Source: Proteromonas lacertae (Eukaryota). Taken from it: DNA of 64,000 bases. The position numbers and the translations under genes were made by a program. The notes beneath the pieces are model-generated. The model did not search any database and was not told the origin of the DNA. It saw only the letters and a program-made list of their open reading frames with translations. The stretch lies in NCBI GenBank assembly GCA_002245135.1, contig NGBS01000595.1, positions 62,001-126,000 on the forward strand, read 5' to 3'. Below, one piece after another: positions 32,410-59,519 of the stretch. The first letter of the stretch is position 1, and every line of letters begins with the position of its first letter.

Positions 32410-32459
32410 CAAAATACTTACTTTATATTATTTATAAACTGTATATAATACTATCATGT

Positions 32460-35400: not shown

Positions 35401-37255
35401 GAAGGAGAAGAAGCAAGACAACAACAACAGCCAGAACAACCGGTTGAAGCTGAAAAGCCAATAATTGTAGATGGAGTTCCAGTTAATTCACCAACACATG
35501 GTTAAAAGAATTACCACCAGAACCAAAAATAGAAGGAGAATTAGCACCACCTAGTGAAGAACCAACAATAGCAAATACAAATGCAGAAGAAGAAAAATCT
35601 AAAGAAAAAGAAAAAGATGAAAACAAAAAACAGTATTCTGCAAGAGTAAATAGTCAAAAAACAGTTTCTGTCAGAAGTAAGAATTCGCAACAGAATGATA
35701 ATAAAATACCATCTCAACTTAAAATGATAACAAATACGAACAAATTACCTTCAGGAAAGAATACAACAGGATTACAAATCACAGTTGATAGAGAATTTGA
35801 AGCATTAAGATTATATTATATTAATTTATTATTAGATGAAATAAACAATCAAAATCCTGCTAATTTATGTTTAGCTTGAAAAGAGAAAGAATTAAATGGA
35901 ACATCAATAAATGGTTCAAAAAGTGAAGGAGTAGTTGATAAAACCACAAAAACACCTGAAACTGGTTTAACAAATATCAGTAATAAAACAGGCAAAACAA
36001 CAAAAATGGCGAATAAGAAAATATATAATTTACATTTAGGTGAGTTTCCATTAGCTGATTATGTAGTAGATTTTGGTAATGTAGTTCGAATTGATTGCAA
36101 GACGAAGACATTTACAATAACTAACATAGGTAATTTACCAGTGAATTTCGCAATAGAAAGAAGAACTTTAAAAGAGAGTGGATATACATTAACTCCAGAT
36201 GAAGTGAAAAGATTACCAGAAAGTTCAACAGTGACATTTACAGCTAGTATTACAGCGAAATCTGATTTACCTTATGGAAGATATGATTTAGCAATTCCAA
36301 TCGAAGTACAAGGAGTACCAACTTATTGTATAATATAAAGATTATAATGTAATTCAAACTGAAGTAAGAAATGTAGGTGATAAATTGGCAGTGAAATTAC
36401 CACCACCTGAAGAACCAGAACCAGTAGTAGAAGAAAGATCAGCTTTACCTGATCCAAAGAAAGGAGGAAAAAGAAGTAAATTAATTGATAAGAAAGGAGA
36501 TAAAAACTCATAGAAAGGTAAAAAAGAAAAACCACCACCACCTCCTCCTCCACCATTTGGAGTTGGTTTATTATGTGATATAATCAATAACAATGGTGAA
36601 AGTGATATTGATATAATAATTCAAGAAATCAAAGAAACAGTTCCATTGTTTAATACATATGGAGATTGGAAAGTTCCACCTCCAGTAGTATTCCAATTAG
36701 TTAAGAAGCAAATTCCAAGAAAACTCTTAATACCAACAAGTAATTATAAATTAATAGATGAAAATAATGCCACAAGATGGAAATTAGAACCTGATGAAGA
36801 ATTGCAATTGAAAGTGACATTTGAATAATTAGAAACTGGTAAATTTAACTATTGTTTCCACTTTGAGATAGTTAATAAAGATAAAACGTATGAAGTTCCA
36901 ATCAGTGGTATTTGTGATTATCCAAAAATTAATCAAAATCCGAAAGATATATTTATGAAATCAATAAAACAAAAGAATGAACAACAAATAATAAGTAAGA
37001 GATAAATAAAGAACAAAGGATATTATGAATTTGGTCAATTATTAATAGGCAAAAACATAAATATGAGAGAAAACAATCCATCTTTAAAAGCTAGTAATTG
37101 TGAAACAATTTAATTCAGTAATAATGGAATGTTTTCTGCAACAGTTGATTTGTCAATGAAAAATGATGATGGAATATTCACAATAGAACCAACCCAAATC
37201 GATATTGAAGCAGGTGAAACTCAAACAGTAGATACTGGGGCATCTCCAGTAGAAA
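32460..37255 (+). pseudogene. HYDIN: Hydin (central-pair axonemal protein) pseudogene, N-terminal/central region
   Basis: Successive ASH/PapD-like repeats (KGHVVGPTFFF..LDFGIVSYAF, FNLRVPQDG, EHPQ/DHPQKD, VDGGPVY, YVVDFGNV); many in-frame stops and frameshifts; no introns evident. Confidence 0.88.
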
Positions 37256-37465
37256 ATATTCAATAAACAAAAGTTGAATGAAAAGATAGAAGAATTTTTA
37301 AATACTGAGATGTTATTCAAACTACCCATTACTCCATATCCCATATTTATACAATTTATAAACGTATAAGAGACTTTGTTTATGAAAATTCTAGTATATT
37401 ATGAAGTGATTGATAATTTCAAAGAGAGTTTAATATTATTTCAAAACTTTAAAGATAATTGAAAT
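37256..37465 (+). pseudogene. Axonemal dynein heavy chain remnant (DHC_N2 region, DNAH10-like), left part
   Basis: Translates EEFLNTEMLFKLPITPYP and DNFKESLILFQNFK, resembling inner-arm dynein tail sequence as recalled. Confidence 0.7.
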
Positions 37466-37692
37466 ATAATAATGAAAGAAAGGTGGTTATGTATACCTAT
37501 ACATAACCCCCTATTGATTTTTGATCGTTACATTTTGTTACCCAAAAAAATATTCGTTACATTTTTTCTTTTTTAAATTTTTTATATTATTTAGTAACAA
37601 CCCAGAATACATAACTAATATTGATACATTTTATTACTCAACAAACACACAATCAAATAAAGCAGTTAACTTTTACTTTGAGTATAATTATT

Positions 37693-38247
37693 TTAATGAT
37701 TCTTCTTAACTTTTTTGATTGACTTAACTCCATCGATTTCCAACTTACTATATAATTGTATTCTTGGTGGTATAACTTCTGAAGGGAAGTTATAATATAT
37801 GTTTATAGCTTGCCCAACTGCTTCATCCCATTTGAATATATCATCAACAAGGAATGTATGGAGCTTACTTCTGACTGATGCTGTCTGGTCTCCATAAAAT
37901 TTCATCACATCATGCCATTTGCAACCATTATCTCTAATAAACTCCAATTCTCTCTGAAATGTTAATCTTCTGCAGTATAACAATATCTCTGAACTGAAGC
38001 TGAGAGTACCATATGCTGCCGTGTATATTGAATCTAATTTAATAATACATTCATCCAAATAGTTCTGAAATAACTCTTGTTGTTTAATAGCCATCGCCTT
38101 GTATACACCTCTGGATCCTTTAGCTGCAAATGGTTGGATAATACCTCTAATATCTCTAACTTTTTTAATTAAGCCAGGAACACCATCCACTATCATCTGA
38201 AAATCTCTATGATATAACTCATCATAGGATCTTTGATGTTTAGACAT
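37693..38247 (-). CDS. TIR-encoded 184-aa protein of unknown function (copy 1)
   Basis: Intact ATG-started ORF, identical translation to 57625-58179. Confidence 0.75.
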   Translation of the reverse strand: MSKHQRSYDELYHRDFQMIVDGVPGLIKKVRDIRGIIQPFAAKGSRGVYKAMAIKQQELFQNYLDECIIKLDSIYTAAYGTLSFSSEILLYCRRLTFQRELEFIRDNGCKWHDVMKFYGDQTASVRSKLHTFLVDDIFKWDEAVGQAINIYYNFPSEVIPPRIQLYSKLEIDGVKSIKKVKKNH

Positions 38248-38547
38248 GTTAATATTGAAAATTAATGATAGAGAGTGAAACGGATATATTTTTTATTTTC
38301 TTGAAACCTAATTGGATGACTCCTATACGTGTTCCAATATGATTGGTCAAAACATATATCTTTATCAACTAACCAATTAATTGATATAAAATAAAAAAAA
38401 TATTCGTTTCACAAGATATTATGATTACTCCTAAAACTTACGTATTAATGGATTTATTAGTGGTACAGATCACATCAAGTGCCTGTACTATACTCATAAT
38501 ACCTCCTGAGACAAATAAGAAGCTTTTAGAAGAAAATATCAAAAATC

Positions 38548-39243
38548 ATGTTGTGTGGTCCAGACTATACTATCAATGAACCTCATTTACAAGTCAATGA
38601 GGATAAGAAGGAATGGAAGGTAATATTTCCTCAGTGCTTTAGACCACATGTTAGAACAAGTCTAGGTGATCCTTGGGTACAGAAGTATGTCAGCTGGGAT
38701 GATTTTAGAGAAGATGTAGAGTATGAAGAATTCATGTGTAAGAAATATAAAATCAAAAAGGAGGATCATTTTGACATTCCGAAGATGGATCCAGGTATGG
38801 AAGAATTTGTATGCAATCCTATGGGAAACCATGTTGGAAATATAAAAGATGTGGTCTTTGACAGCAAAATTGGTTATATGGTCTACAAGTGTAAGAATGA
38901 TAATTCAGAACCTCTATACCAATTAACATATCCTGAAGATGATAAAATTGAAGGAATACAATGCTACCTGAAGATATGTCCTGAAAGTAATAATTTTTTA
39001 ATGGATAACAATGCAAGAATCACAATACTTGGACCTCAGTTTCATTTAAAGAATCCATTATTTCAGATATGCAAAGAGCACAGTTCTTATGAGATTATAC
39101 TTCCAAGAGCTCCAGTTGTCTTAGATACAACATTACCTTACAATTGGGTTCAACAGCATATCAAAATATGTTGGGAGCCTAGCAAAAGCCATTTGATTGA
39201 AGATTTAATTGCTAAAGGTATTATAGTGGATCCTTGTGCATAA
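38548..39243 (+). CDS. TIR-encoded 231-aa protein of unknown function with internal repeat (copy 1)
   Basis: Intact ORF, identical translation to 56629-57324. Confidence 0.75.
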   Translation: MLCGPDYTINEPHLQVNEDKKEWKVIFPQCFRPHVRTSLGDPWVQKYVSWDDFREDVEYEEFMCKKYKIKKEDHFDIPKMDPGMEEFVCNPMGNHVGNIKDVVFDSKIGYMVYKCKNDNSEPLYQLTYPEDDKIEGIQCYLKICPESNNFLMDNNARITILGPQFHLKNPLFQICKEHSSYEIILPRAPVVLDTTLPYNWVQQHIKICWEPSKSHLIEDLIAKGIIVDPCA

Positions 39244-39869
39244 ACATGAGAGAAGTAAAATTATATCCGTTTCAGGATCAAAATATTTTTTGGGTTTATA
39301 TATTTGAAATTTTGTCGTTATGCTTCTAATCTAATTTGCAAAAAATGCTCAATTACATTATTATCTATTGAAAACATCACCAATCTTTTCGTAATATTAT
39401 GATGGACTCATATCTAAATAGATTTCAAAATAAACTAAAAATATCGATACATATATCATGATTTCCATATGGTGTGATATAACACAATAGAGTTCAAGCC
39501 AAATCACTTTTGTAACGAATCTATTTTTTCAATTATTAAAATTTCTTATAAGACGTATATTGCTTATCTATATAATGCTAATTAATTATGTATATCATAA
39601 ACACAACACCCTACACAAACACAATCAATCATTTGAACCAATTAGGACCAGAGATTAATAATGGAAGCGGACAGTACTCATCATCATCTTCCTCTGTGCT
39701 CACATCTTCCATTTTTTTTGTTTGATTTCTTTCTTTGAATTGTTCTCTTCTTTTTGAATTTAGGAGTAGTTGAAGTAGTGCACTTTCTTTTTGTAGATAC
39801 TATTTTCAGCTAGGTTTTTAAACAATGATACTGAGATTCCTTCAAATATCTTTACCCATTGATTTAGGA

Positions 39870-40594
39870 ATTTACATGTCATACGTAACTGCACTATCTA
39901 AACCAGTACTAACTTTATCTAATAACAATACTCGACTTGGACCTAATAAAGATTCACCTAATGTAACTCTTTTCTTTTCACCTCCACTACTACTGTATTT
40001 TCACAGATATTCAATCCCAACTTTTCTATCAACAGTTTGGTTTTATTACTCACATCAAATTCTAATCTGTAATGGCCTGTTTTTAATAAATTACCTTTAC
40101 CATTCAAACAATGAACTGAAAAGTCTAATGTTTGTTTCACAGTCAAATTGCCTAATTGAATGTCATTTTGACCACAGAAACTACACAATTTCTTCCAGTT
40201 CAAACTCTCGATTGGCTTACCATCACATTTCACACTTCCTGTATGTTTACTGGATGGAATATAACCTGCCAATGCCTTTAAGAACGATGTAGTACCAGAA
40301 GAAGGAGTGATAAGTCACATCCTTAAGAACCACTTGATTTTTCTTACTTGATAAACCTAATCCATCCACTACTTGACTGTAAACTCCAGTAACAATGTTT
40401 GGAATATCATTATACTCTCTTTTCTTCTTCTTTACCTCATAGGTGTAGTTTTTAATAACAATATCAACTTTTGGTAAGTCTGATAAAAATATCTTTAACT
40501 CCCTTGCATATTTCACATACTCTGATTTTTCTATATTTTCGTCATCTGTTATACATACACTAACTGGTAGATGATTAACATTACTCATTATCAA
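39870..40594 (-). pseudogene. ABCG/PDR transporter N-terminal fragment (cargo)
   Basis: SGTTSFLKALAG, GQNDIQLGNLTVKQTLDF, LGLNICENTVV, SGGEKKRVTLGE, LLLDKVSTGLDS; frameshifted and truncated. Confidence 0.85.
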
Positions 40595-41235
40595 TTCAGT
40601 TAATGTATTGGGTGTTTTTTATTTTACTATCTCCTGTATAATATATAGTTTAACATACATATAATTAATCACATTATTACTTTCTATTATAATCACTTCA
40701 TCCTGAAAGAAAAAATAATAAAAATATTTTAGAGTTTTGTTGTAAAAATTATAATTCCCCTATATAATTCCAACATAAATGGCACAAACCAAATCCATTA
40801 GCAAAATCACTAAAACTAATTATACTCCAAAAATTATATTAGTAAACGTTTGAGAACTATGAATAAAGGTAATAAAGTACAAATATCCTGTAAATACACC
40901 AATATTCCATAACTACATTAGCTTATTGCACTTTTTTAGCTTAAATTTAAACAGATGTACTTCCAAATTACCAATCTCAACTATTTAATAGTCTAATAGT
41001 GTATTACAAAATAATTTAGATGTTCCAATTCTCTAGGTTATAACATTGTGAATTAAGAATTGATTTAACTGCTTAAAATACTTCATGTTATTTAAACGCT
41101 TTAAGGTTAAGTTTTTTTTCAATGTTAAATCTACTTTACCATTACTTCAATATTTCTTAATTTAAGAATTTTCTGAAAAATTCTCAAACTTATGTTAGGT
41201 TTGAGTTGTTATAATTAAGCCTATTATTAAAATTA

Positions 41236-43330
41236 TTGTATCTACCACCTTTAAAAAGTATAAAAATACTAATATATTTCACTCCATATGAAGAAATAGA
41301 ATATAATGAAAATGTAGTATTTGAAATAAGTGGAATAAGTACTCAAACAGTAGAAATAAGAGGAAGAGGATCTCAATTACATTTAGAATTAGTAGATTTG
41401 AGAAAACAAGTAATCAATTTTGGTAAAGTAGAAGTGAATAGTGAGAATAATAAGAGTATAGAAATAATCAATCGTAGTTTATATACTTACAATTTCGAAG
41501 TAGTAAATGAATCAAATGAAGGAATGTTTGGTGATATAAACTGTGTAAGTATAAGTCCAAAAGGTGAAATAACAATAAAACCAAAACAAATGATTAGTTT
41601 GGATATAAATTTCCATCCAAATCAGAGATTATTAGCATTTGAGAATCATTACAATGTAAAAATCAATGGTGGTGAAGCATTATCATTCTTTACAGTAAAA
41701 GGCGCTTGTCAAGGTGTAGATGTAGTGATAGAAATCTCTTTATTACAATTTGGAGCAGTGTGTTTAGGTTCATCAGTAACTCGAAAGATCTTATTAAGTA
41801 ATGAAGGTGATAAACGAACCAAATTCCGATGGAATTCAGGTCAATTTGCTCCAAATTTCTCTATAATTCCAGTGGAAGGTACTTTACTACCAAATATTCC
41901 AATGTCATTAAATATAACGTTTACTCCTCAGAATTTGAGTAATGATATTCGATGTGATAATTTGAGATTGACATTATCAGGTTCTTGTGTAGGTCAACCA
42001 GAAGCAGGTGATAAAGAATTGAGATTTGAATGTGAAGTTCGAAAAGAGAATAGTCAAATAATCAAATTAAGTAATCCAACAAATGATAGTTGGTTTTTAC
42101 ATCCAACAATTCAAAATGAAGTATTTAGTGGAAATCCTTCAGTAACAGTTCCAGCGAAAGGTACAGTAGATTATACTGTAATATTCAAACCAACAACTTA
42201 TAATGGTGATGGAACAAAATTAGATTTATCAGCCAATGCCAGTCGACCTCCATCTGAAGCAGGAAATCGAAAAGATGGTAAAGGAAAGAAAGGAAAGAAA
42301 GAGACAAATGCAGGATTTAATTGGAATAATCCTCATAAAGGAAGTTTATTTATATCTTTACCTGATGGAAATACAGTGAATTATAATTTATTAGGAGCTT
42401 GTTCTTTACCTCAACCAATGGAAATTCCTTCAAATATTGAATTAGAAACAACATGTAAGAAATCTTTTGTATCCTTACCAGTATATAATTGGATGAAAAC
42501 AGCTCAAAGATTCAAAGTAGAACTTGGTGATTTACCAAATAATTCAACATTTATAAAAGTTCCAAATGTAATAAACATTCCAGCTTTAGCTTCAAGAGAA
42601 TGTCAATTGAATTTCTTAGCTTATAAACCAGGTGCAACAGAAATAATGTTAAGATTTATCTGTGAAGAAAGTGGTGAATATTGTTTCTATCAATTCACTA
42701 TCAATGCAACAAATGCTGATATAATGAATAGTTATGAATTAGTAACTCATGTTCGATAAGTAGCAAAACAAACAATAACAATAAATAACCCATTACCTCC
42801 AATCCTTGTGTTCGATTATCAGTAAGTAAAGAATTAAGTGGTCATAAAGATGGAAGTTATTCAATCGAATATCGACCATTATTAGCAGGTGAAAGTGAAT
42901 GTGATGTGACAATAATAACAAACGAATTAGGTGAATTTAACTACAAATTGAAACTAAAAGCATTAGAAAGTGGTTATGAAAGAGGATATAATATGTCATG
43001 TGGTTTAGGTGGTAAGATAGTAGAAGAAATCAAATTTACGAGTTATTGTCCAGCAAATACTGAATATAAATGTACAATCGAAGGATGTAAAGATTTTACA
43101 GTAGAGAATGTAGTGAAAGTAAATGGTTCAACAACTTGGGATGGAATTGCATCAATCGCCAAAGTGAGTTATGAACCATGTCAAATAGGTGATGTAAAAG
43201 CGATATTAAAAATCGATTCTCCTCAAGGTGGTTTATATAAATATCAATTATTTGGAAAATGTTTATCACCTCAACCATTAGGTCCATATACAGTAGGAAA
43301 AGGCAAACAGATCAGTGTTCCATTTTATGA
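41236..43330 (+). pseudogene. HYDIN: Hydin C-terminal fragment inside the Polinton
   Basis: LQFGAVCLGS, LTLSGSC, HKGSLFISLPDG, LPVYNWMKTAQRF, GGLYKYQLFGKCLSPQPLGPY; 507 open codons then stop and deletion. Confidence 0.88.
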
Positions 43331-44933
43331 ATATATTTCCATTACCTATTCCAAAGTAACTCATAGCTTTACTGAGTTGTTTTGCTTGATCTAAATTACT
43401 CACTGCGCTACCAAAATTAGTGAGTGAACTTGGAATTGTTTGTTGTGAACGTTTTACGTAGTTATCCATTTTGATTGCATTCTTGTGTTGATATGGTGTT
43501 GGTTTTAACCAATTCAATAAACCACCTGCATCTAGCAAACCAAAACAAGCAGTCAATGCACTGAATACTGTTCCTATACCTGCAACAGTTTGTAATGTAC
43601 CTGTTGGATCAGCTGCAACAGCAGTTTTTGCCATTGATGGCATAGCTTTTGATAATTCACTAATACCTTTAACTGCTGCTGCAGCAGTTGTTGCATCACC
43701 TCCATTTGCAGCTGCAGCTACAGTTGCTGCTGTTTTTAATGTATCACCTACATTTTTTGCATCTATATTTCCTATATTAGAAAATTTGTAGAAGAATGGA
43801 ACTAATTGAAATAAGTATCGAACATATGGATGAGTATTGAACATAAATGACACACCAAAGTTATACAACAAGTCTACAGGTAGCCATGATTTTTGAATTG
43901 CTTCAGGTAACATTGACTTAACTTTTTCTGAATTACCATAATACAAGTCAGTGATAGCAGGTAATCTACCACCTGACAGCATACGAATTATCTCATAGTA
44001 GTCGAAAATGAAGTACCACATTACATACAAGAACCCTGATGTTGGTAGTTTGGATTTTTTCCATAACCAATAAGCTAAACATGTCATTACTATTGCACGT
44101 ACATATTTCATTGCATGATCTACTTCAAACATTTGAGGAGTAACTCCACCTACCAAATATGATTTCATTGTATAGTATATTTGTGGAAATATCCTAAATA
44201 CATTCTCTACACACAGGAACAAATTACCAGCAAAACCCATAAAATCAGATTCACATAATGAATCGAGTGCTTTTTGAAATTGTGAATTTTCAAATTGTGC
44301 CCATGAACTACAAGCAGTTTTCACTAAACCAATAGCTATTTCATATTTTTGTCTATTATCTGCATTCACCCACTCTTGAGGAAGTGAGTGACCTAACTTC
44401 TCTCTGTTATAATCAAAGTTAATGAAATCTCTACTATTCTGTGATGCTATTTCATTCAGTTCTCTATATTTATCTTCATTAATTAATGTACACTGTCCTT
44501 CACCCATATCTATAACACTATTCATCAGTTCTTGATTTTTTGGATCTAATGCCCATCTATAAAATTTTGATCTTTCTAATATCTCTTGATCATCCATATA
44601 TCTTTGTGCCTTTTGATTATTCAATGCAATATATTCTTTTACTTTTTCAGCTCGATTCGGATCAAAATTATATGGATCTGAATATTGATTGATCTTACTT
44701 ACTCCATCAACTAATTCATTTTGCAAATACTCCTGCTGTAGTAATAGTTTGTTATAATATTCTATTGCATCTTTATCATTACCTGTTAATTTATCACAAG
44801 TTGAGGTCAACCAATCTTGTCTATAATTTTTATAGGCTGCTAATTGAGGATTCTTTTCTATAATCTCTTGTAGTGATTTATAATTTTGTAATTTAGGAAA
44901 TTTTTGTAACAAAGGATCTGTTACTCTATTCAT
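43278..44933 (-). CDS. Polinton protein of unknown function (551 aa, hydrophobic central region); last ~15 codons read through antisense Hydin
   Basis: Long ORF; paralogous to 47737-48880; similarity ends at GNGN. Confidence 0.7.
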   Translation of the reverse strand: MNRVTDPLLQKFPKLQNYKSLQEIIEKNPQLAAYKNYRQDWLTSTCDKLTGNDKDAIEYYNKLLLQQEYLQNELVDGVSKINQYSDPYNFDPNRAEKVKEYIALNNQKAQRYMDDQEILERSKFYRWALDPKNQELMNSVIDMGEGQCTLINEDKYRELNEIASQNSRDFINFDYNREKLGHSLPQEWVNADNRQKYEIAIGLVKTACSSWAQFENSQFQKALDSLCESDFMGFAGNLFLCVENVFRIFPQIYYTMKSYLVGGVTPQMFEVDHAMKYVRAIVMTCLAYWLWKKSKLPTSGFLYVMWYFIFDYYEIIRMLSGGRLPAITDLYYGNSEKVKSMLPEAIQKSWLPVDLLYNFGVSFMFNTHPYVRYLFQLVPFFYKFSNIGNIDAKNVGDTLKTAATVAAAANGGDATTAAAAVKGISELSKAMPSMAKTAVAADPTGTLQTVAGIGTVFSALTACFGLLDAGGLLNWLKPTPYQHKNAIKMDNYVKRSQQTIPSSLTNFGSAVSNLDQAKQLSKAMSYFGIGNGNIFIKWNTDLFAFSYCIWT

Positions 44934-45782
44934 TCAATTATCATATGCCTGAACATCTGCTTCTGTAACATATTCAGGCCAGTTCAAAAGATAGCTTCTT
45001 GGATTAGATGTATCTAATTCTGCTAATGGGAATGTTCCTCTTAAATGTCCTTTTTTATGTTCACGATCTAGCATATCATAAAAATTAATATGATAATTGT
45101 TAGGTAACATTGAAGCATAATTATTAGTTAATGCATATTGAACTTCTTTTCGAGCTTGTCTATTCAAACCTGGACTAAATAATTTATCATAATTCCAATT
45201 ATAATCATATCCTACAGTTTCTTTTGGTATATATGGTTGAATATATTCTGGTATTTGACTTGGCTGTAATTGTGATGTTCCATTATAAGCAGCACTAGCA
45301 GCATCATACATTTGTTGTCTTGGATTAGTAATAATGACATGCTCATTAGGACCAACACTTTGACCCACTCTTAATGGTATAATACCACTATTACCACCTA
45401 ATTTCTTAGTAGCCAAGAGATGCCTCCGTGGGATACTCTCTAATTTTAGTTTATTTCTTCTGTGATGTTTCTTATGTTTGAAATGAACATGTTTTCTTCT
45501 ACCTGAACCTGTCTTTGGATATCCATCTAAAGACATACCAAATAAACCATAATTTACTTTAGGCCATAAATGATATTCACTACCCATACCATTAATTAAA
45601 TTACACACATCTGATCGTGCTTCTGGAACACTATGACCACATTGATATTTGAAATAATGTAAGTAATCTGTCAATTGATCTATTGTTCCTCCATAGCTGG
45701 AATACTTTGATATAATATCCAATGGCAATCCTACATTTTTACATACATTTTCTAAATCTTGTTTTGTATTATTCATAACCAT
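44934..45782 (-). CDS. Polinton protein with basic His/Lys/Arg tract (possible virion core protein)
   Basis: 282-aa ORF abutting next gene; TGSG-RRKHVHFKHKKHHRR; paralog at 47070-47444. Confidence 0.65.
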   Translation of the reverse strand: MVMNNTKQDLENVCKNVGLPLDIISKYSSYGGTIDQLTDYLHYFKYQCGHSVPEARSDVCNLINGMGSEYHLWPKVNYGLFGMSLDGYPKTGSGRRKHVHFKHKKHHRRNKLKLESIPRRHLLATKKLGGNSGIIPLRVGQSVGPNEHVIITNPRQQMYDAASAAYNGTSQLQPSQIPEYIQPYIPKETVGYDYNWNYDKLFSPGLNRQARKEVQYALTNNYASMLPNNYHINFYDMLDREHKKGHLRGTFPLAELDTSNPRSYLLNWPEYVTEADVQAYDN

Positions 45783-46279
45783 TTGCTTAACTGATTCATA
45801 ATAGCATCTACATTATATCTTTGTTGTTGTTGTATTGGTTGTGTGTTATTTTGGAATGTTGGCTGGGCTGTTGCCGCCGCGGCGGCAGCAGCACCTGCCA
45901 TCATTCCGGCGTAACTTGCAGCATTTGAACTTTGATTATTATAACCTGCACCAGTTGTAGGTATTGAAGTTGTATTATTATAACTGGGGGCAGTTGTAAC
46001 ATTCGATGCTTGAATATTTGAAGTGGCCGGCGCACTCGTCGAATTTGTTGTTGAAGGAGTAGCACCAAATATACCTCTGAACCAATTGTATATATTACTT
46101 AGTGATGTAGTAAAGAAACCCATTATACTATCTAACTTAGAATGAATCCATTGTGGCATATCCATTGGAGGAACTTTTCTCCAATGATTATATACCAAAC
46201 TGACAAAATTAGGAGTTAACATTGATACAAAAGATGCTGCATTAACCCATGCTGGGGATAAACCAAATATCCATTGCAT
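45773..46279 (-). CDS. Polinton protein, Ser/Thr/Ala/Gln-rich, probably 5'-disrupted
   Basis: 168-aa ORF overlapping start of next gene by 10 nt. Confidence 0.5.
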   Translation of the reverse strand: MQWIFGLSPAWVNAASFVSMLTPNFVSLVYNHWRKVPPMDMPQWIHSKLDSIMGFFTTSLSNIYNWFRGIFGATPSTTNSTSAPATSNIQASNVTTAPSYNNTTSIPTTGAGYNNQSSNAASYAGMMAGAAAAAAATAQPTFQNNTQPIQQQQRYNVDAIMNQLSKWL

Positions 46280-47069
46280 AACACCACTATATCCTATTCC
46301 TACATTTAAAATACTTTAATATTGCACCAACAGTACTATCAGGAAATAATATATCAAACACTTGTGAAATAGAACCTAATGTCATAGTGCATAAGCAGAA
46401 CTTCACACCAAATTTCAACCAATCGTATGTTGTATTACCTGAAAAATATCATCTTCATCTCCAATAGTATCATAAAATCTATTGAAACTGGATTTAGGAT
46501 CATAGATGTCTGATCCATATGTACCATTGCCTTTGTCAACAATAGCTGTTTGATTGGCAAGATGACTAAGGTCTAGTTTTATACGTGTGTTATCTTTCAC
46601 CTTGTTATAGATGATCTTTTTCAATTTACTCTTAAGTGCATTATGTTACACAGAGGAATTCTCAAAATCAATTGCTTCTTCTTATGGTGATGGTTGTTGC
46701 TTATGCTTTCGTTTAACACCCATAAAATATATAAAAACAATATAAAAAAATAGAGAAACAATACTATTAGAAATATAGCCGTTATTGATATTATAGATGA
46801 TATTATTTTTTCTTCTGTTCTACAGGCTGCCATCCATCATCATCAAAATCATCAGAATAAAAATCAGAATCAAATTCATCATCTTCTTGTTCTTGTTTTT
46901 GTTCTTGTTCTTCTTCATCAAAATCAGAATCAAATTCATCTTCTTCTTTAATATCATCTTTTTCAGTATTATTGGCTTCTCTCCAATACTATCTTATTTC
47001 TTTTTGTTCTTCTGGTGTTAGATATTGTATTATATTCTCAAGTTCATCATTTGTTAATTTTGTAATATC

Positions 47070-49430
47070 ATGTTTAACATCAGTAAACATGTTCATTTCA
47101 AAAAACATAGAAAACATAATAGGAAGAGTAAATTGAAATTAAAATCAATTCCACATAGGCATTGCTTGGCTACTAACGTTTTAGGAGGTGTTGTACAACT
47201 AAATATGGGAACAACAGTAAAACTTAATGAACACTTTGTTGTTCCCAATCCAAGACAAAGTGTAGATGAAGGTAAAATACCAATCTATATACCAACTCAA
47301 TTACCAACTAATGTACAACGATATATACCAGAACAGCCTGTTGGAAACAATTATAATTGGAATTATAATAAATTGTTTGGACCTGGTTTAAATAGACAAG
47401 CTAGAAGAGAGATTCAAAATCAAATCACAATTAACTATGATTAACAATTATCTAATAATTGTCACATTGATTTATATGATATGAGAGATCCACCACATAA
47501 GAAAGGTAATTTAGATTAAGTATACAAAAACTATAAAAATAATATATTATCTAAAGGATGGGACTATATTATGGGAAATAATAAGGAAATGGATGAATAT
47601 TATAATAAGCTATTATTGCACAAGAGTACTTGCAAAATGAATTAGCAGATGGTGTTAGTAAAATACATACTTATTCTGATCCATCTAATCTCGATGCTGA
47701 AAAAGTTAAATAATATATTGCATTAAATAATCAAAAATGGGTAGAGTAATGAACGATGATCAAATAAAATACCAAACACTCTTTTTTAAATTCGCTACAG
47801 AGAATCCAGACATTATGTCAAAAGTTCCAGATATAGGTCAAGGTGAATGTTCACCAATAAATGAAGATTATTATAGAATGCTTAATGAAGTAGCTTCACA
47901 AAATAGTAGAGATTTCATTAATTTTGATTATAATAGAGAGAAATTTGCTCATGAACTTCCTGAAGATTGGATGGCAGCTTCTAATCCAGAAAAAGTATCG
48001 ATAGCATTTGGTTTGCTGAAAACAGCATGTTCATCATGGGCAAAATTTGAAAATTCACAATTTCAGAAGGCATCGGACTCTTTGAAGGAAACTGATTAAC
48101 AGGTTTTGTAGGTAACTTATTGTTGTGTGTAGAAAATTTGTTTAGGATATTTCCTCAGATATATTATACATTCAAAGATTATTTAGTTGGTGGAGTGACT
48201 CCTCAAATGTTTGAAGTAGATCATGTAATGAAATATGTATGTACAATATTACTTTCATGTTTGGCTTTTTGGTTATGGAAGAAGGCAAAATTGCCAATGA
48301 CAGGCTTCCTGTATGTAATGTGGTACTTCGTGTATGATTATTACGAAATTATTCGTATGCTGTCAGGTGGTCGTTTACCTGCTATAACTGACTTATATTA
48401 TGGTAATTCAAAAGCATTACAAAACTGGTTACCGATAGATTTAATTTATAATTTTGGTACATCATTTTTGTTCAATAAACATCCCTATATCAGACATTTG
48501 TTTCAAGCAGTGCCATTTTTGTTTAGGTTTACTGGTATGTCACCTCCTAATTTAAGTAATGTTAGTTCAGGATCGATATTGAAAGCTGCTCCAGAAGTGT
48601 TAGCACAGGATCCAACAGGTACAGTACAGACAGTTGCTAGTGTAGCAACAGTGATGACAGCACTCACTGGAGTCATTGGTTTGTTGGATGCACGTGGTTT
48701 ATTAAACTTCCTGAAGCCAGAAGGACATAAACATAAGAATAGAATACAATTTGCTAACTACGTTCCAAAACAACAACAATCAATTCCAAGCTCATTCACT
48801 AATTTTGGTAGAGCAGTGAGTAATTTAGATCAATTAAAACAAGTTAATCAAGCTTTAAATTGGTTTCAAAGAGGTAATGGAAATAAAAAATTAATTTCAC
48901 GTAGGAAAGTTTTGTATAACAGTATCGCTTCAGATGCCTTATCGAACTTTGATATAGAGTTAATTGTGAAAAATGAGTTCAATAATTTTCATGGAAAGTT
49001 CATGGGAGTCTTTTGCTGGGACAAGCTTGTACTTCCTATACCCAAAAAGAAGAATCAATGGGGAATCATAATCAATACACTCACCACACAAGCTAGCCCT
49101 GATTCTATAGGTCATTGGGTGGTCTTAGTAGTTGACAATATCAAGAAACAATTCCTGTACTATGATTCATTTGGTGAAGATCCTCAACACTTGGAAGAAT
49201 TTAAAAAGAATTTGAAAAAATTAAAGAAGTATCATAATGAAAAGTATGAACTTAAAATCAATGGAGTACAGAATCAAAATTCAAATACTGCCAACTGTGG
49301 ATTTTTTGCTATTAATTTTTGAAAAATATTTTAAGAGATCAGTGTAGTTTCAAAAAGGCTACTGACTATAATACAATAGTGGGTGAAGCAAAAATTAAGT
49401 TAATGAAAAAAGCAATTTGGTTTAATATAA
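47070..49430 (+). pseudogene. Inverted paralogous gene pair ending in an adenain/Ulp1-like cysteine protease
   Basis: Paralogs of 282-aa and 551-aa ORFs with stops/frameshifts; C-terminal IINT..GHWV..YYDSFG..Q..NCG catalytic motifs. Confidence 0.85.
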
Positions 49431-49469
49431 AAAGAAATATTCGTTTATTTTTTTTGGTGTTATTCTATT

Positions 49470-50760
49470 GATTTATCATCTTTTCTAATTCTGGGTCTTT
49501 GTAATATTCTTCTGAACCAAGTATCTCGTGCTTCATCTTTTTTCACTAACTGCAACTCATAGTGCTTAAAATGAATAAGTGAAAAATCTGGTATCTCTCT
49601 ACCATCTTGATCTCCTAAACAATACGAATATCTATTTATTTTAATTATTTTGTATACATGATCTGATCAGTATATATTCTTATCCAATTTACGTCCTCGT
49701 TCCTTAAATCTCACTAAGTCACCAACTTCGAAATTTTGATCACTTTTTTCAAGTTTTTCAAAATTTTTCAAATTATAGTTTAATGATTTCTGTAATATTT
49801 GCTTTTGCAATTCAGGACTATGAAATACCTCATTTGGTGTATATCCTTTGATTCCTGGTAATGGTTTATTGTTATAGTCATTTACCACTTCTTGTATTAT
49901 TTGATTAAATTATATTATATAATTTGGATCTTTAGGTACATGTATATCTCCATGGTCAATATCAGCTACATATTCAGGTGCTTCAAAACCAATATCTACC
50001 AAGTGTTTGTACAATAATTTTTTTATCACACTGACTGACCTATCCAATAGAGACTCTACCTTATGCTCACTGGTCTCTTTCATATAGTATTGTATACCTT
50101 CTTGACAAAATTTAAAAACATTATAAAAACCACTTTCTTGATCTGACAAAATACTTACCACATTTTTATGTGTTTTGTTACCATAATTATCATACTCATA
50201 GTACCAATTTAAAAATGCAGGCATTATATCATATTCACCTCTTTTACCAGCAACTGGTGTAACCCATACTTTTCTAGAGTTTAATTCAATTAAATACAAG
50301 TGAGGTAAATTAGGCTAGAAAAATACCAAGTCCATTTGGAAATACCCTGGCTTTTTGATAGTAGCGAACGGATTATTTTTTTGTACTTGAAATCAACTAC
50401 TTGCTTCCCAACTTGTCTCCTTAGATATTCCCTAACAACATCTGGTGGTGGTGGTGTATCATTGAGGTTTTTTACTTGTTGGGTCATTTTCACAAATTCA
50501 TCATCTTTTAAATAATATTATTTTTTATAAAGTTCATCTAGTTGTTCTCTATATTGAGCAATTTGTCCTGCCATTTGGTCATCATACGAAGCTTCTCTTG
50601 GTGCAATCTGTATATTCGGTGCTCCATTGTTAATATATGCTGCAAGTGATAAGTTCCCGTTTGTAGGAGCCTGTTTAATTGGATAAGGAGTTTGGATGTT
50701 ATAGCTGCTATATAAATGTGGATCATAAGTATTAGTGCTAGACATATAGACCAAAAACAC
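49470..50760 (-). pseudogene. Retroviral-like (rve) integrase, frameshifted
   Basis: FQMDLVF, IELNSRKVW, ILSDQESGF, DRSVSVIK, YNNKP..GYTPNEV, FEVGDLVR across three or more frames. Confidence 0.85.
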
Positions 50761-51175
50761 AAAACAAGAATAATGATGAAATTCATTAATATCATTAGTA
50801 TTAAGCTACTTTAAGAAATTATAGGTGATAGTAATAAGATTTTCGTTATTTATTTTAAAACACCATCTAATTGAATCATTATATGTTTTATGCAGATATT
50901 CATTGATTTCTTTGAAACATGGACCCAACTTGATTTGTATTGGTTTTTTGGGTGCTGGTGCTGGTGCAGATTGAATCGAATGATGAATGTTGCTTCTGCG
51001 ATGTTTAGGATGAAATCTATAGACTTAGAAAAAATCAAATTTACCCACCAACGCGATATGTGGTCTTAGTACGTGCCATAGGATGAGTTAAGAAAAACAT
51101 TAAGAATTGGAATAATTTTAATAATTTATCCGTTTCAAAAATAAACACAATTAATATGAAATGAGTTATTTATTT

Positions 51176-54100
51176 TTATATGGGAACTACATCATCATCA
51201 TCCTTCTTCTCTTCTTCAATATTTTTTATAACATCATTATATGGCTCTGAGTGATAAACATCAATATATTTTCTTTTCACATAGAAAATCGTAAATGCTA
51301 ACTTATTCATGCGGACTGTATAAATGCATTGACTTGCTGTTCTAAATGAGAATTGCTCTACATATACTTTTTTAGACTCAGTGAGAATATCATAATAATA
51401 TTTGAAATCACACGTTTGTAATCGAAATCCTTTAGTCACACCTTTGGCTCTAGAATCACTTAACAACAATGAATTTGTTCCATCGATCCTTTGTTTTTCA
51501 TATGCATACATTTTTGCTTTCAAACCACAAAATTTTGTAATTGTATACAAACCATTCTTATTTTCTTCTAATTTCATCAAATTCAATTCTGAAGTTCTGT
51601 GTGAGTTTGTATATCTAATACCTTTGGATTTTAAAAAATCACAATTAATATTACCAGTATCCATTCTACCTTCAAATGATGGGTCTTTCATAATATCTTC
51701 ATAGATATCCTTTGTAAATACCTTGAATATGAAGCTATCTGTATCAGTCATTAAAAGCTTGAGGCTTGACCCATATTTTCTATACAAAGTACCATACCAA
51801 AATTTACTCATTAAATGCTTGCTTTCAAATAATATACACATTCCTATATAACTTGGTTTGTTAACCTGACATTTATATTTTTTAAATTTGCATATTCTTA
51901 AATCACAACCATCTATACTAACAAACCCACTAAAATAAGGATTGCTAGAACACTTTAAGAAATCTTCTTCATTATTGACTAATTTTGATCGACATCGATT
52001 TTCTGTATTTTCACACATTTTTCCATAGGCTGAATTGAGTAACAATTTGAATGTATCTGCTTCTGCTTCTCTCTTGTGTTGTTTGGCTTCTCTACGTAAC
52101 AAGTGACACTTCATCACAAAATCAAAACAGAAGTGATATTCTTTAAAGGATATGATACGATGTATTTTTGTGATCTTATAACCTAAGGATACACAGAAAT
52201 TCAAATATTGATAGTGTACAACATATTTTGGTTTTCTTGATAAATCCAATATAATTCTAGGTGTGTTGCTTTTAAGTTGTTTTTTCTTATTCACCAATCC
52301 TAGCTCCATAGCCCAACTTTGTTGTAACTGTGATAAGTTTTCGTACTTTATACACTTCTTTTCAGGTAATAATGGATATTCATCGAATTTGTGAGTGTTT
52401 GAGGGAGGCTCGATATTCACCTCTAATATATAACCTCTGGAGTCTTTATTATCCCATTCATCATTTACATGCTCTTCTTTGTCACTAATCATTTCTTCAT
52501 ATGTTTTGATGTTATATATTTGACTGTAATACATATCCATCAATTCCTGCTCATTTCCTTCTTCCCACTTGAAATCAGCATATGGTAGTTTCATTGTAGC
52601 CATTGTACTTGGATATAGTGAATTGTAATCTACATAGCAAATATATGATTCTATCTGAGGAGGATGTTCTGCTATATAGGGTGGGTCCATATAGTGATTA
52701 TGTGCTTCTTCTAAACGACTCGATCCAACCATAGATATGCCACCTATTAAACCACTGTGAATAAAATCGTATTTATCTTGGTCGCTAAGCAACTCTATCT
52801 CCACTGGACAATATTTCAAAAACACACTCCATGACAAACCAGGTGATGATAAGTGCCAACAAGGGTCTAAATCAAAGTTTTTAAAAACAACTTTTCTGAA
52901 GTGATCAAATACTGAGGATAAAGTGAGAACATCCATGGCTAAATAAAATTTATTATAATCCATTAAATCTTTACACTGAATGACATCCCACAACTCACAG
53001 CATGATGCATACTCTATATCTGTTATATTATCACTCTGTTTTAATTTTGAAGCAAAATCTTCTTTTTTAGGTAAACGGCTAGTTTTATAATATTTGTCCA
53101 AACTATCACAATATTCATATGGGAAGTGTCCCTTCTCTAACCCCCACTTATCTATGAAATCTTCCACTGACCATCCACTACTGGTCAATTTTTGATAGAT
53201 GAATTGTTCTCTGTCAGTAACAAAGTCATATACTGGTTTGAATAAATATTTTTTATTTGAGTGTTCATTTGCTTCTACTTTTAATGACTTTACTAAACTA
53301 TCCAATGATGCTGGCATGAACTGACAACTGTCTATGAATCTTAACTTCTTGAATTTGATCATCAAAAATTTATTATCTGTTTTCATTAAAACGGATAGTT
53401 TTGTTCGATATCTCTTTTTCTTAGGTTTAGGTCTTGGTTCAGGTTGCTGAGGTAATATAGGTGGTGATACAGATGATCTATCATTTAATGGTGACAATGT
53501 CGGTGATACATTTACAACATTATCTCTATGTATCATTTCATGTAACATATGGAATGCTTCTTCATCATTGTTTTCTAGTGGGATCAATATTTATTATTGT
53601 CACAATGGGATCCATGCTTCTTGGAGTATCACATTCTTCAATGTCACTATCTTCTTCAGTATCAGCATTATAGTTGGCTATCAACGCTTGTTCCTCTTCC
53701 ATCTTTTTTTCTTCTTCTATGCTATCATTATAGTTAGATATTAAATCAGGAATTGGAATATTGATTTGATTCTGGTTTGATTCTTGAATTTCAATTTCTG
53801 GCAGATCTGCATCCTGTATAGTGTTCATGTTCTCCAAAACCCATTGTGCTTCATATTCTTTGTCTTTCTTAGCTAATGCTCTGATAATAAAATTATTATC
53901 GTAATTTTTGCTATTATGTGCCAACACTGGAATATACATATTTCTTAAATCACAATGCCAGTTACACTTATTACATAGAGTTGCTATGTATTGACCAGTG
54001 AAGTGGTCATGGTGCTTAACAGGTCTCAAATCTTTATCTTTACTGATAAATTGCTTATGACAATATGCACATTCTTTATTCGCATCATCTGATTCAATAT

Positions 54101-56060
54101 ATCCCCACATCTTTTGTGGGTGTGCTATCTTGTCTTCATATATTTTCATTATATTATTTTGAATCTCTAAGAATTTGTTAACTAATCTTGTTTCTAACAC
54201 TGATGGATCTTCACCTGGTTTTAATTCATCAAAGTATGTTTTTTCTGGAATTGTACCAGGATACTGAGAACTGATGTGTATGCACCAGGTGCTCATGACA
54301 TGTTTCTTGTATGCTCCTTTTGCATTTTTGATAACTGTATTTGATGGCAAATCTTCTTGGTATGTCTCAGTGTCCCAGTATAGTACCACAGGCATCATTT
54401 GCATAAATTTATAATTTTTGAATGATATCATAGTTCCTGGATCTGGGAACTCTCTGATAATACCTCTGTTGTTGGATACTTGACAATTTATTTTTGATGA
54501 TATTGGAATGATTTATCGCTGAATAATCTACAGAAGCAATATGGACATCTTTCTACATAATTACTACATTTTTGTTTTAATGGTAATAAAAATGCATTGA
54601 GGTTGATAATTGGGTAAAAATGATTTCCATAGAACAATACATTGGCATGAGGCCAAATTTTGAATTTATCTATCTGAGTGACATATAATGGTATAGCTTC
54701 ATCAAAATCCACTGTAAATATGTTAAGAGTGATTTTGTTATTTTTCTCAAACTGACGTATACCATTTTGATGATTTATAGGATCTAATGGAAATTCTAAG
54801 TAATCTGTGTTATAAGATTGCACATAATGTTTGTAAAAGCTTGCATGATTTCTATTCTTAGGAAATTCCATATAATGAATTGATGCAGCTACTGCATACA
54901 GAAAACATATATTTTGTCTACCAACTGCTTTACTGAATTTCAATTGTATAATGCATCTTTTCTTACTTATGTCATTAGGTAACTCTACTTTTTCGATTTC
55001 ACTATCATTGGTAGCAGAACCAGCTGTGACAATAGAACGAGCCAAATTAATTACTACTTCATTAATCCATCTAAATCTTAAATCTGATTTTTGAGTATTG
55101 AATATCTCACCCATATTGTCATATAAGTGGTTATATAATTTTTCTGGTTAAACACCACCTAAATCACCTTTAGTGCAAATTACAATATCAGTGTCAAAAC
55201 TCTTCCAGTTTGTCATAGTTTCTTCAGATTCTGCAGTTTCTATTACATCTGCTGAGATATAAGCTACTTTGAAAGTAAAATAAATTTTTGCATATCCAAA
55301 GTAATCTATGAAATTTCTAATTTTTACCATACACTCTGGAATTGACTGTTGTTGTTCTTCTTCTTGCTGTTGTTGCTTATTTCTATCTCTTGTATATCCA
55401 GTTAACTCTTCAAACACTCTTTCTGGTGATTTTGCGATTTCAAATTTTGGATGATCTTTCTACATTCTCCATTAATTCTCTTCTCTGTGGTATAGGTAAT
55501 CTTCTTATTTGTTGTGGATGATTTTCTAACACATCTAATGCCTCCAATGTATCTTTCATTTCTTCTTTGGTTTCATTACTCACATTTGGTGCTTGAGGAT
55601 GTGTCTCTGGTATATCTGACACAGGTGGTGCAATTTGATGTGGAGACTCTGGAATTTCATCATCTTCTAAATATCGTTGAAATTGTTCAGCGCTCACTCT
55701 ACGAACTTTGGGTGATGGAGGTGGCTCAGCTTGGATGGTTGGTCTTCTCAGTGGTGTTTGGTACTGCGGGTTCTGCACTATCTGCACAGGTGGTCTAGGC
55801 AGTATAGGCCTAAATGAACTTTGACTCAAAGTGTTGACTGGGTTTTGCAATGGAGGTGGTTGTTGCTGTACTGATTGTTGCTGGGTATACAATGGTGGTG
55901 GAGGTGCATACATGGGCATAGGCGGTGGTGCCATCATAGGTTGAGGTGCATAGTAGTACATGGGCTGCATAGGAGGCATGCCAGGGTTGTATGAACCTGT
56001 AGTACCTGCTCCATACATAGGATGAAACATATTATAAGGATAAGGGTATCCTGGGTACAT
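51176..56060 (-). pseudogene. Protein-primed DNA polymerase B with endonuclease-VII-like insert and Pro/Gln-rich N-terminus; four disablements
   Basis: WDTET, HHDHFTG..CNKCN, HNSKNYD, FIDS, KGHFPYEY, DYNSLYP, KLLLNSAYGK, TDTDS; frameshifts near 55443, 54490, 53580 and in-frame TAA at 55148-55150. Confidence 0.93.
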
Positions 56061-56628
56061 CTTTGACTTCAAGAATCTTGAATCTTGAATGTTTAATCTG
56101 AGTGGCTAGTTTGGTACTCTAAACCAATAGAAATCGATTGCAATATGATTGGACCACGTATCTGCATTAGCCAATGAAATATAATTAAAAATCTAAAAAT
56201 GCAAAAATATATCCGTTTCAAAATTTTTATAATTTTTTTAAATTATGAACATAGACAATGCTAGAAAAAATTTTGATATGTGGGAACAGTATATACATAA
56301 CATTGTGAATAGTTTACCGAGTGATGAAGAAATTTTAAAAGCATCGCCAGAAGAGATATCCAGATATGCTAAGAAGGCAGCAAAATTAATACCATTGCTT
56401 TAAAAAAATTAATGATGAGTGTGATGATGAATTTAGTGAGAAAATTCAAAAATTAAAAAATGAAATGTTAGCTAAAAAAGAAGCATCTGCTTTATTACTT
56501 ATTGAGTTAATGGATCAGCTTAATTTTTAATTATTTTCTTATGTTATTATGACTATAGTTATATATAAATATATAAACCCAAAAAATATTTTGATCCTGA
56601 AACGGATATAATTTTACTTCTCTCATGT

Positions 56629-57324
56629 TTATGCACAAGGATCCACTATAATACCTTTAGCAATTAAATCTTCAATCAAATGGCTTTTGCTAGGCTCCCA
56701 ACATATTTTGATATGCTGTTGAACCCAATTGTAAGGTAATGTTGTATCTAAGACAACTGGAGCTCTTGGAAGTATAATCTCATAAGAACTGTGCTCTTTG
56801 CATATCTGAAATAATGGATTCTTTAAATGAAACTGAGGTCCAAGTATTGTGATTCTTGCATTGTTATCCATTAAAAAATTATTACTTTCAGGACATATCT
56901 TCAGGTAGCATTGTATTCCTTCAATTTTATCATCTTCAGGATATGTTAATTGGTATAGAGGTTCTGAATTATCATTCTTACACTTGTAGACCATATAACC
57001 AATTTTGCTGTCAAAGACCACATCTTTTATATTTCCAACATGGTTTCCCATAGGATTGCATACAAATTCTTCCATACCTGGATCCATCTTCGGAATGTCA
57101 AAATGATCCTCCTTTTTGATTTTATATTTCTTACACATGAATTCTTCATACTCTACATCTTCTCTAAAATCATCCCAGCTGACATACTTCTGTACCCAAG
57201 GATCACCTAGACTTGTTCTAACATGTGGTCTAAAGCACTGAGGAAATATTACCTTCCATTCCTTCTTATCCTCATTGACTTGTAAATGAGGTTCATTGAT
57301 AGTATAGTCTGGACCACACAACAT
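56629..57324 (-). CDS. TIR-encoded 231-aa protein (copy 2)
   Basis: Identical translation to 38548-39243. Confidence 0.75.
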   Translation of the reverse strand: MLCGPDYTINEPHLQVNEDKKEWKVIFPQCFRPHVRTSLGDPWVQKYVSWDDFREDVEYEEFMCKKYKIKKEDHFDIPKMDPGMEEFVCNPMGNHVGNIKDVVFDSKIGYMVYKCKNDNSEPLYQLTYPEDDKIEGIQCYLKICPESNNFLMDNNARITILGPQFHLKNPLFQICKEHSSYEIILPRAPVVLDTTLPYNWVQQHIKICWEPSKSHLIEDLIAKGIIVDPCA

Positions 57325-57624
57325 GATTTTTGATATTTTCTTCTAAAAGCTTCTTATTTGTCTCAGGAGGTATTATGAGTATAGTACAGGCACTTGATGT
57401 GATCTGTACCACTAATAAATCCATTAATACGTAAGTTTTAGGAGTAATCATAATATCTTGTGAAACGAATATTTTTTTTATTTTATATCAATTAATTGGT
57501 TAGTTGATAAAGATATATGTTTTGACCAATCATATTGGAACACGTATAGGAGTCATCCAATTAGGTTTCAAGAAAATAAAAAATATATCCGTTTCACTCT
57601 CTATCATTAATTTTCAATATTAAC

Positions 57625-58179
57625 ATGTCTAAACATCAAAGATCCTATGATGAGTTATATCATAGAGATTTTCAGATGATAGTGGATGGTGTTCCTGGCT
57701 TAATTAAAAAAGTTAGAGATATTAGAGGTATTATCCAACCATTTGCAGCTAAAGGATCCAGAGGTGTATACAAGGCGATGGCTATTAAACAACAAGAGTT
57801 ATTTCAGAACTATTTGGATGAATGTATTATTAAATTAGATTCAATATACACGGCAGCATATGGTACTCTCAGCTTCAGTTCAGAGATATTGTTATACTGC
57901 AGAAGATTAACATTTCAGAGAGAATTGGAGTTTATTAGAGATAATGGTTGCAAATGGCATGATGTGATGAAATTTTATGGAGACCAGACAGCATCAGTCA
58001 GAAGTAAGCTCCATACATTCCTTGTTGATGATATATTCAAATGGGATGAAGCAGTTGGGCAAGCTATAAACATATATTATAACTTCCCTTCAGAAGTTAT
58101 ACCACCAAGAATACAATTATATAGTAAGTTGGAAATCGATGGAGTTAAGTCAATCAAAAAAGTTAAGAAGAATCATTAA
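57625..58179 (+). CDS. TIR-encoded 184-aa protein (copy 2)
   Basis: Identical translation to 37693-38247. Confidence 0.75.
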   Translation: MSKHQRSYDELYHRDFQMIVDGVPGLIKKVRDIRGIIQPFAAKGSRGVYKAMAIKQQELFQNYLDECIIKLDSIYTAAYGTLSFSSEILLYCRRLTFQRELEFIRDNGCKWHDVMKFYGDQTASVRSKLHTFLVDDIFKWDEAVGQAINIYYNFPSEVIPPRIQLYSKLEIDGVKSIKKVKKNH

Positions 58180-58406
58180 AATAATTATACTCAAAGTAAA
58201 AGTTAACTGCTTTATTTGATTGTGTGTTTGTTGAGTAATAAAATGTATCAATATTAGTTATGTATTCTGGGTTGTTACTAAATAATATAAAAAATTTAAA
58301 AAAGAAAAAATGTAACGAATATTTTTTTGGGTAACAAAATGTAACGATCAAAAATCAATAGGGGGTTATGTATAGGTATACATAACCACCTTTCTTTCAT
58401 TATTAT

Positions 58407-58700
58407 TGAAATAACCAAGACATTTACATTAGATAATATCTTTATAATGAATTTAGCAAGATTTGAAGATCAATATGATGAGATAGTAGTTGGTGCCCAA
58501 GATAAAGCAAAGATTGAAAATATGATATGAGAAAGAAAAGAAATTAAATGAAAAATACAAATAAAAAAATGAAAGTGGAATAGTGTTGATAATGGTTTTA
58601 GAAGAATTATAGTAGAATAAGATGATAATTATTCTTTCTTCTTCTAGAAATATTATTACCAAATTGATGAAAAATACATTTTCAATAATCAGAATTTATA
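58407..58700 (+). pseudogene. Axonemal dynein heavy chain remnant, right part
   Basis: EITKTFTLDNIFIMNLARFEDQYDEIVVGAQDKAKIENMI continues the left flank once the element is removed. Confidence 0.72.
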
Positions 58701-59519
58701 TAAATAAAAAGAATTATTGGTAAATTGTATTGAATGATTACTATAATAATACAACACATATAACAATTGTAATGAATGATTGGTAAATTATTACATTGGT
58801 ATAATTTAAAATAGTCAAAAGAAAAGAAAAAAGAAGATATATTTTTATAAATATTGTTACACTTACGTCTTAAATAATGAATTATTTTTTTTGGGGGGGT
58901 AAGAGTATTATAAAATAACACAGTAAAATATCTATAAAAGCTATTCTACTACTATAATTTCTATAAATATATATCATTCTATCTATTCCTATTATAATCT
59001 CTATCATAGGTTTGTCTAGGAGACATTTTTCACTTCTCAATTTTCTTCTGTAACTTATGTGTATCATTTCATAATCATTGATACTATTATATAAAACAAA
59101 AATCAACACATAAATTATAATTTTGTAAATTATACAAAAGAAGCTAAGTGTTAAAAATATACTGAAATTAGCTACACACTGAAATGAATGATTTTTATAG
59201 AAGGTATTGAAATATGAAATACATTAATTTGTTGTAGCTTTGAGATTCAAGTCGATTAAAGATTGTATTTCTGTTTATATTGTAGATATTAACTTTGTAA
59301 CTAAAATTATAGATTTAGGTGAAAAACATGTGCATATAAAACAAGTGTTTATATCAAAATATTGATTTTAGTACAAATAAGGGGGTAAGAAAATTCAAGA
59401 TTTTAGTTACATTTTTTTATTTATATCAACAACAGAAGTGAGTTATAAGCTAATATTTTATATTATTCATGTACTTAATATGTATTAATAGATTATGTAA
59501 AAATATTTGTTACATAGAC

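Follow-up and report, generated by a model that had tools for sequence, protein, structure and literature searches.

Dynein islands on both sides of a Polinton-like element

The window analysed here, a 64-kb stretch of DNA, contains a Polinton-like element, a virus-like transposon of 20,941 bp (37466-58406), inserted into the remains of an axonemal dynein heavy-chain gene of DNAH10 type. The element lies between terminal inverted repeats (TIRs) of 1840 nt, the left and right copies of which (37466-39305 vs 56567-58406) are 100% complementary (1840/1840 nt), and the hexamer TGAAAT is present at both outer ends, a match with a chance of ~0.0008-0.0014. That the target site is a dynein fossil had been proposed in a sequence-only reading, whose three peptides were recovered where it had placed them, and both flanks indeed match axonemal dynein in gene order. 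The features of the insertion site are as follows.

37268..37342, plus strand: dynein island 1, nodes 216-240 of the DNAH10 profile, 24.7 bits, also found by hmmsearch
37345..37401, plus strand: dynein island 2, nodes 255-273, in another frame past a 14-codon deletion, 16.1 bits
37403..37459, plus strand: dynein island 3, nodes 311-329, past a 37-codon deletion and a frameshift, 20.1 bits
37460..37465, plus strand: left copy of the 6-bp target-site duplication, TGAAAT
37466..39305, no strand: left TIR, 1840 nt, starting ATAATAAT
56567..58406, no strand: right TIR, 1840 nt
58407..58412, plus strand: right copy of the TGAAAT duplication, whose bases start dynein island 4
58408..58527 (58414-58527 in the chained alignment), plus strand: dynein island 4, nodes 352-389, 39 bits
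58573..58617, plus strand: dynein island 5, nodes 496-510, past a gap of ~106 nodes, 14.8 bits
58616..58884, plus strand: probable extra short dynein islands into the motor domain, weak, 9-20 bits each

The islands were placed by a frameshift-aware chained alignment with an untuned 8-bit jump penalty, run on the empty site, i.e. with the element removed. Islands 1-5 follow one another in profile order (nodes 216-510) with gaps of 14, 37, 22 and ~106 nodes, which agrees with the earlier description of a fossil collinear with dynein and shortened by deletions. The fossil is larger than was described there; it retains ~116/295 profile positions (~40% of the span) in at least five islands, including island 2, which had been overlooked in its different frame and is also found by hmmsearch. 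Stops, frameshifts and large deletions interrupt it, and an intact frame with an AAA motor was not found. Island 4, with 38-41% identity, aligns to residues 1478-1515 of human DNAH10 and to positions 113-148 of DHC_N2. Beyond island 5, weaker matches probably extend as far as ~58880 and into the motor domain, as judged from two downstream intervals: the score of 58528-58800 is reached by 6/465 control tiles and 0/150 shuffles, and that of 58528-58900, an interval picked after the long-profile scan had been seen, by 0/340 tiles and 0/150 shuffles.

Strength of the dynein match and its class

The right piece (58408-58527) matches Pfam DHC_N2 (PF08393) with an E value of 5.6e-4 (19.3 bits). Its best PDB matches are to DNAH10 (E 0.054 for the human residues given above), followed by outer-arm beta (E 2.2); all seven of its PDB matches at E≤10 are to chains of axonemal dynein size (one is filed under a molecule name that does not agree), with no cytoplasmic chain among them. 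The left peptides alone find no dynein match in Pfam or PDB. On the DNAH10 profile, the left flank alone scores 44.9 bits, reached by 0/588 control tiles, and the right flank alone 47.6 bits, reached by 0/430. The joined flanks score 84.6 bits, a value that none of 248 control tiles attains (maximum 43.5) and that exceeds all 120 decoy joins (maximum 65.5) as well as the swapped flank order (50.5). The proposed axonemal heavy-chain fossil of the DHC_N2 region is thus upheld, each flank being significant alone and the PDB matches being axonemal. The check suggested with that proposal, to join the flanks and apply HMMER, succeeded in part: the right side matches DHC_N2, but the join gains 0.2 bit only (18.2 vs 18.0).

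References for the class test were fetched by motif (119 loci from metagenomes and 10 from genome contigs), and trees were built from the rows with enough stop-free sequence, first 39 and then 52. The DNAH10/f-alpha, outer-arm gamma and outer-arm alpha/beta clades were labelled by PDB through one member each, while the clades that we take to be DNAH2-like and single-headed inner arm were named from motifs. Against 84.6 bits on the DNAH10 profile, the joined fossil scores 51.7 on DNAH2-like, 51.8 and 50.1 on single-headed inner-arm, 61.0 on gamma and 28.5 on alpha/beta profiles, the null maxima being 32-39 bits (60 shuffles). Both flanks prefer the same class, and the top 5 of the 52 single references all belong to the DNAH10 clade. 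The DNAH10 or I1 f-alpha assignment made earlier therefore stands on the class scores (84.6 vs 28.5-61.0 bits), the top references and the best PDB matches. Ten contigs in prokaryotic genome records also carry dynein heavy-chain motifs, two of them outer-arm dyneins by PDB; these dynein-bearing contigs are likely eukaryotic contamination.

An open frame across the junction had further been offered as independent proof of the element boundaries, a claim that fails. The left part of this frame is an out-of-frame reading of island 3, its seven left codons totalling ~-3.5 bits on the adjoining profile columns, and nine stop-free codons are expected by chance ~50% of the time at the junction. Homology to dynein on the left runs in another frame, which ends at a TGA within the TGAAAT duplication. 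The base-exact element ends depend on the TIRs and the duplication, not on the fossil, which backs the boundaries only coarsely. A single insertion is supported in that the flanks derive from adjacent stretches of the same gene, to within ~22 codons.

Several points weigh against this interpretation of the flanks. The chaining score comes from the author's own script on a seven-sequence DNAH10 profile; the right-piece DHC_N2 score of 19.3 lies below the curated cut-off of 31.9, and none of the islands passes a library threshold. A search with island 4 gave 0 matches among 1.84 billion protein representatives, and a second large protein homologue search was also without match. When 426 tiles of 300 nt were scanned blind on the long profile, the left tile came top by a narrow margin (46.7 vs 43.6). 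Two of the seven DNAH10-clade references score low (32.5 and 27), and the references of the chained class test were all axonemal. A ~22-codon deletion (nodes 329 to 352) and a frameshift also fall within ~6 nt of the insertion point. The short islands, the sub-threshold library scores and the deletion at the junction would be expected if the flanks were different dynein copies, or chance matches in AT-rich DNA, with a coincidental hexamer. This explanation is nevertheless very improbable, given that each flank tops all of its control tiles, that the join tops the decoys (maximum 65.5) and the swapped order, that both flanks favour one class, and that the hexamer has a chance of ~0.001.

Gene content of the element and the adjoining Hydin pseudogene

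The genes of the element and the Hydin sequence to its left are given below.

32459..37250, plus strand: Hydin N-terminal pseudogene (Hydin-N), ending at mouse residue 2938
39830..40618, minus strand: broken host gene fragment (cargo), ABC-transporter-like by eye in translation
41242..43325, plus strand: Hydin C-terminal part (Hydin-C, cargo), from mouse residue 4401; PDB E 8.5e-79, and tblastn
43334..46315, minus strand: inverted, truncated paralogue of the element genes at 47058-48885 (plus strand), 68-84% identity
48096..49322, plus strand: open reading frame (ORF) with a terminal Ulp1/adenain-type (C48-type) cysteine protease domain, PF02902 E 2.4e-6
49500..50390, minus strand: integrase-like gene with in-frame stops, ends approximate, rve-like by eye
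51176..55147, minus strand: protein-primed PolB (pPolB) region in three overlapping ORFs, PF03175

The PF03175 match (E 2.1e-20) covers 51179-53590 and identifies a protein-primed PolB, and the PF02902 match marks a maturation cysteine protease, whose frame closes shortly past it. The integrase-like gene displays, by eye in its translation, what may be the rve motif layout, with stops; Pfam and PHROG scans gave no integrase family match. The same two libraries recognised neither a packaging ATPase inside the TIRs, among the scanned element ORFs, nor a capsid among the element ORFs, nor any match for the ABC-like fragment (39830-40618). The left TIR contains two divergent ORFs (199 and 237 aa) without known family, and a 551-aa element ORF has a best Atlas score of 0.80. 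Scans of viral contigs with the dynein motif, pPolB, the TIR end and the outside ATPase-like ORF described below gave no match, and eight element-region proteins had no exact-sequence match in the protein collection. According to the excerpted text of PMC10748475, Polintons measure 13-25 kb and have a 5-8 bp duplication and TIRs of 100-1500; the element has TIRs, and its duplication and length fall within these ranges. The name Polinton is thus apt as regards TIRs, duplication, pPolB and protease, but the element is not a plain Polinton because it carries Hydin C-terminal DNA.

Hydin-C is ~2.1 kb long, contains one stop and one frameshift in 692 codons and has its 3' end cut off, while Hydin-N ends ~20 nt before dynein island 1. 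The dynein fossil hence adjoins a Hydin pseudogene, in accordance with the earlier notice of a second decayed flagellar gene. Stops number 1 in 692 codons in Hydin-C vs 6 in 501 in Hydin-N (p 0.025), a count for which the script found 6 in block N2 and 3 were used, block-tail stops being dropped. This suggests that the two parts differ in age and, Hydin-C being less decayed, that a working Hydin outlived the N-half. An alternative genetic code (TAA/TAG read as Gln) was ruled out, as mtHsp70 runs stop-free over 609 codons to a normal end and S, Y and L are the residues aligned with the Hydin stops.

A difficulty for the favoured history is that Hydin-C lies 4.0 kb from Hydin-N in native order and on the same strand, for which repair of a gap from local sequence, a hop over a short distance or an assembly mis-join may each account. 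Coding sequence of ~4.4 kb is lacking between the two parts, and a Hydin middle was not detected with the frog reference, a weak test because this reference also missed the known Hydin-N. The TIR-bounded unit could accordingly be a local rearrangement (gap repair or Polinton recombination) or a mis-join, with the dynein fossil still real. Besides the order of the Hydin parts, the two diverged inverted gene sets of the unit and the third Polinton remnant at 60270-63000 fit such an origin, and repeat collapse in assembly can also give 100% TIR identity. The intact duplication on both outer ends, the length within the quoted range of 13-25 kb (PMC10748475) and the mobile Polintons with cargo described in the excerpted text of 10.1101/2025.02.07.637071 speak for insertion instead, so that rearrangement is rather unlikely, though the most serious of the alternatives.

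Other repeats and mobile sequences accompany these features. The inverted paralogous block (43334-46315) breaks off exactly where Hydin-C stops. A short motif is common to starts or ends of element ORFs (38276, 39257, 56203, 56598 and 57461) and is a possible element promoter. The Polinton remnant beside the main element has pPolB pieces 65-79% identical to it, and a packaging-ATPase-like ORF (62370-62987) outside the element has no blastn match inside it. An older local duplication of a Hydin piece (32459-32596 vs 33898-34036, 81%) lies ahead of the Hydin pseudogene. Hydin-N, the dynein fossil and the Polinton together lie between two partial ends of a single TIR family (31864-31989 and 59549-59669, inverted identity 87%), a span of ~27.8 kb, with no matching target duplication seen; the pair 31864-59669 is possibly an older Pack-type element. 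Further to the left, a Tc1/IS630-like transposase gene (28058 to ~29730, family by eye) houses a miniature inverted-repeat transposable element of ~620 nt (28970-29590) with 250-nt TIRs (97%) and TGT...ACA ends, apparently flanked by a 5-bp duplication, and a broken hAT transposase occupies 25896-27685 on the minus strand (PF05699, E 2.3e-4).

Host lineage, proposed history and known systems

The best named relatives of the mtHsp70 in the window are from Blastocystis (70-71%), and a FastTree tree of 46 rows, which had no named Proteromonas row, places it sister to all 18 Blastocystis-clade rows with a support of 99. The GC content is 28.2% over the window and 26.3% in 1-28000. In the excerpts of PMC12129017, Proteromonas lacertae has 27.0% GC, 172 pPolB proteins and 85 dynein-heavy-chain annotations vs ~27 with core domains, and tortoise Blastocystis have 21.5-23.1% GC, 0 pPolB and 1-3 dyneins. 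A Proteromonas-like flagellate is a better match than tortoise Blastocystis in GC, Polinton load and surplus dynein annotations. It is therefore quite probable that the host is flagellated and that these genes are its dead duplicates: the host being a gut protist, from a sister lineage of Blastocystis, that resembles Proteromonas and has probably kept its flagella, the fossils are likely dead spare copies and not a record of flagellum loss. Against this, an intact DNAH10 or Hydin copy, which such a host would have, did not turn up in the window.

Hydin and DNAH10 might instead be sole copies, decaying after flagellum loss in an aflagellate host of the Blastocystis lineage. The mtHsp70 position, the two flagellar pseudogenes side by side and the Hydin parts in native order and strand with ~4.4 kb of coding missing are in agreement with this. 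It is made improbable by the GC content, closer to that of Proteromonas, and by the excerpted statements of PMC12129017 that sequenced Blastocystis, tortoise strains included, lack nearly all cilia genes and that tortoise strains are without pPolB. The unequal Hydin decay also speaks against one death, though p is only 0.025. In an aflagellate host the fossils would put a date on flagellum loss within the Blastocystis lineage and show it to have happened more than once. The fuller version, a deep host of that lineage with a late independent loss, Hydin and DNAH10 in mid-decay and a Polinton shuffling the debris, would contradict the view that the flagellum was lost once, in the common ancestor of Blastocystis; it is, if anything, slightly more doubtful still, and the implied loss is doubtful because of the likely host.

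With good confidence, we favour a dead DNAH10-type fragment, already reduced to islands by deletion, that was later hit by a cargo-carrying Polinton derivative. A spare DNAH10-type gene copy would have decayed by repeated deletion and been joined to the dead Hydin N-half, in a host that was likely a Proteromonas-like flagellate with working gene copies elsewhere. When the element inserted, the dynein gene had likely already died, as indicated by the heavy erosion on both flanks vs the identical TIRs. A 6-nt staggered cut by the integrase, followed by gap filling, would account for the TGAAAT duplication. Because the integrase-like gene has stops while the element ends are identical, the element may have moved non-autonomously, with integrase likely supplied in trans. 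The ~4 kb of host fragments would have taken the place of some element sequence, prior to movement or through gap repair afterwards.

The locus is most likely unremarkable genome debris, its one peculiarity being an element that carries part of another flagellar gene. It offers a worked example of a Polinton in an already dead gene, and of decay, dominated by deletions, that escapes annotation from ORFs and Pfam. Judging by the Hydin cargo, Polinton derivatives may capture host gene fragments in Opalinata, and such capture could help explain the surplus of fragmentary dynein annotations in Proteromonas (85 vs ~27 in the excerpts of PMC12129017). A Polinton in a pseudogene is a known kind of event, cargo in Polintons has already been reported (10.1101/2025.02.07.637071, in excerpt), and the excerpted text of 10.64898/2026.07.28.741278 already reports Polinton-like viruses in P. 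lacertae. Among the literature matches listed, no report of Hydin or dynein fossils in Opalinata was found.

As compared to DNAH10/I1 f-alpha chains, the fossil is alike in having islands collinear with the DHC_N2 linker (PF08393) over nodes 216-510; it differs in being non-coding, with ~116/295 positions, frameshifts and stops, with no N-terminal tail seen and with the motor present as weak traces only. The element resembles Polinton/Maverick elements, as characterised in the excerpts of PMC10748475 and PMC6431247, in its long TIRs, 6-bp duplication, length of 20.9 kb, pPolB, cysteine protease and integrase-like gene. It departs from them in TIRs that contain ORFs and at 1840 nt exceed the quoted 100-1500, in broken genes with no ATPase or capsid recognised, and in its host fragments and inverted paralogous block. 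With the cargo-carrying mobile Polintons (10.1101/2025.02.07.637071) and the Pack-type capture of Pack-MULEs (PMC6431247), as described there, it shares the enclosure of foreign DNA by TIRs, the loss or breakage of core genes, and mobilisation presumably in trans; it differs from both in that its cargo combines pieces of different host genes (Hydin and ABC-like), in a protist, and its mobility together with that cargo is putative.

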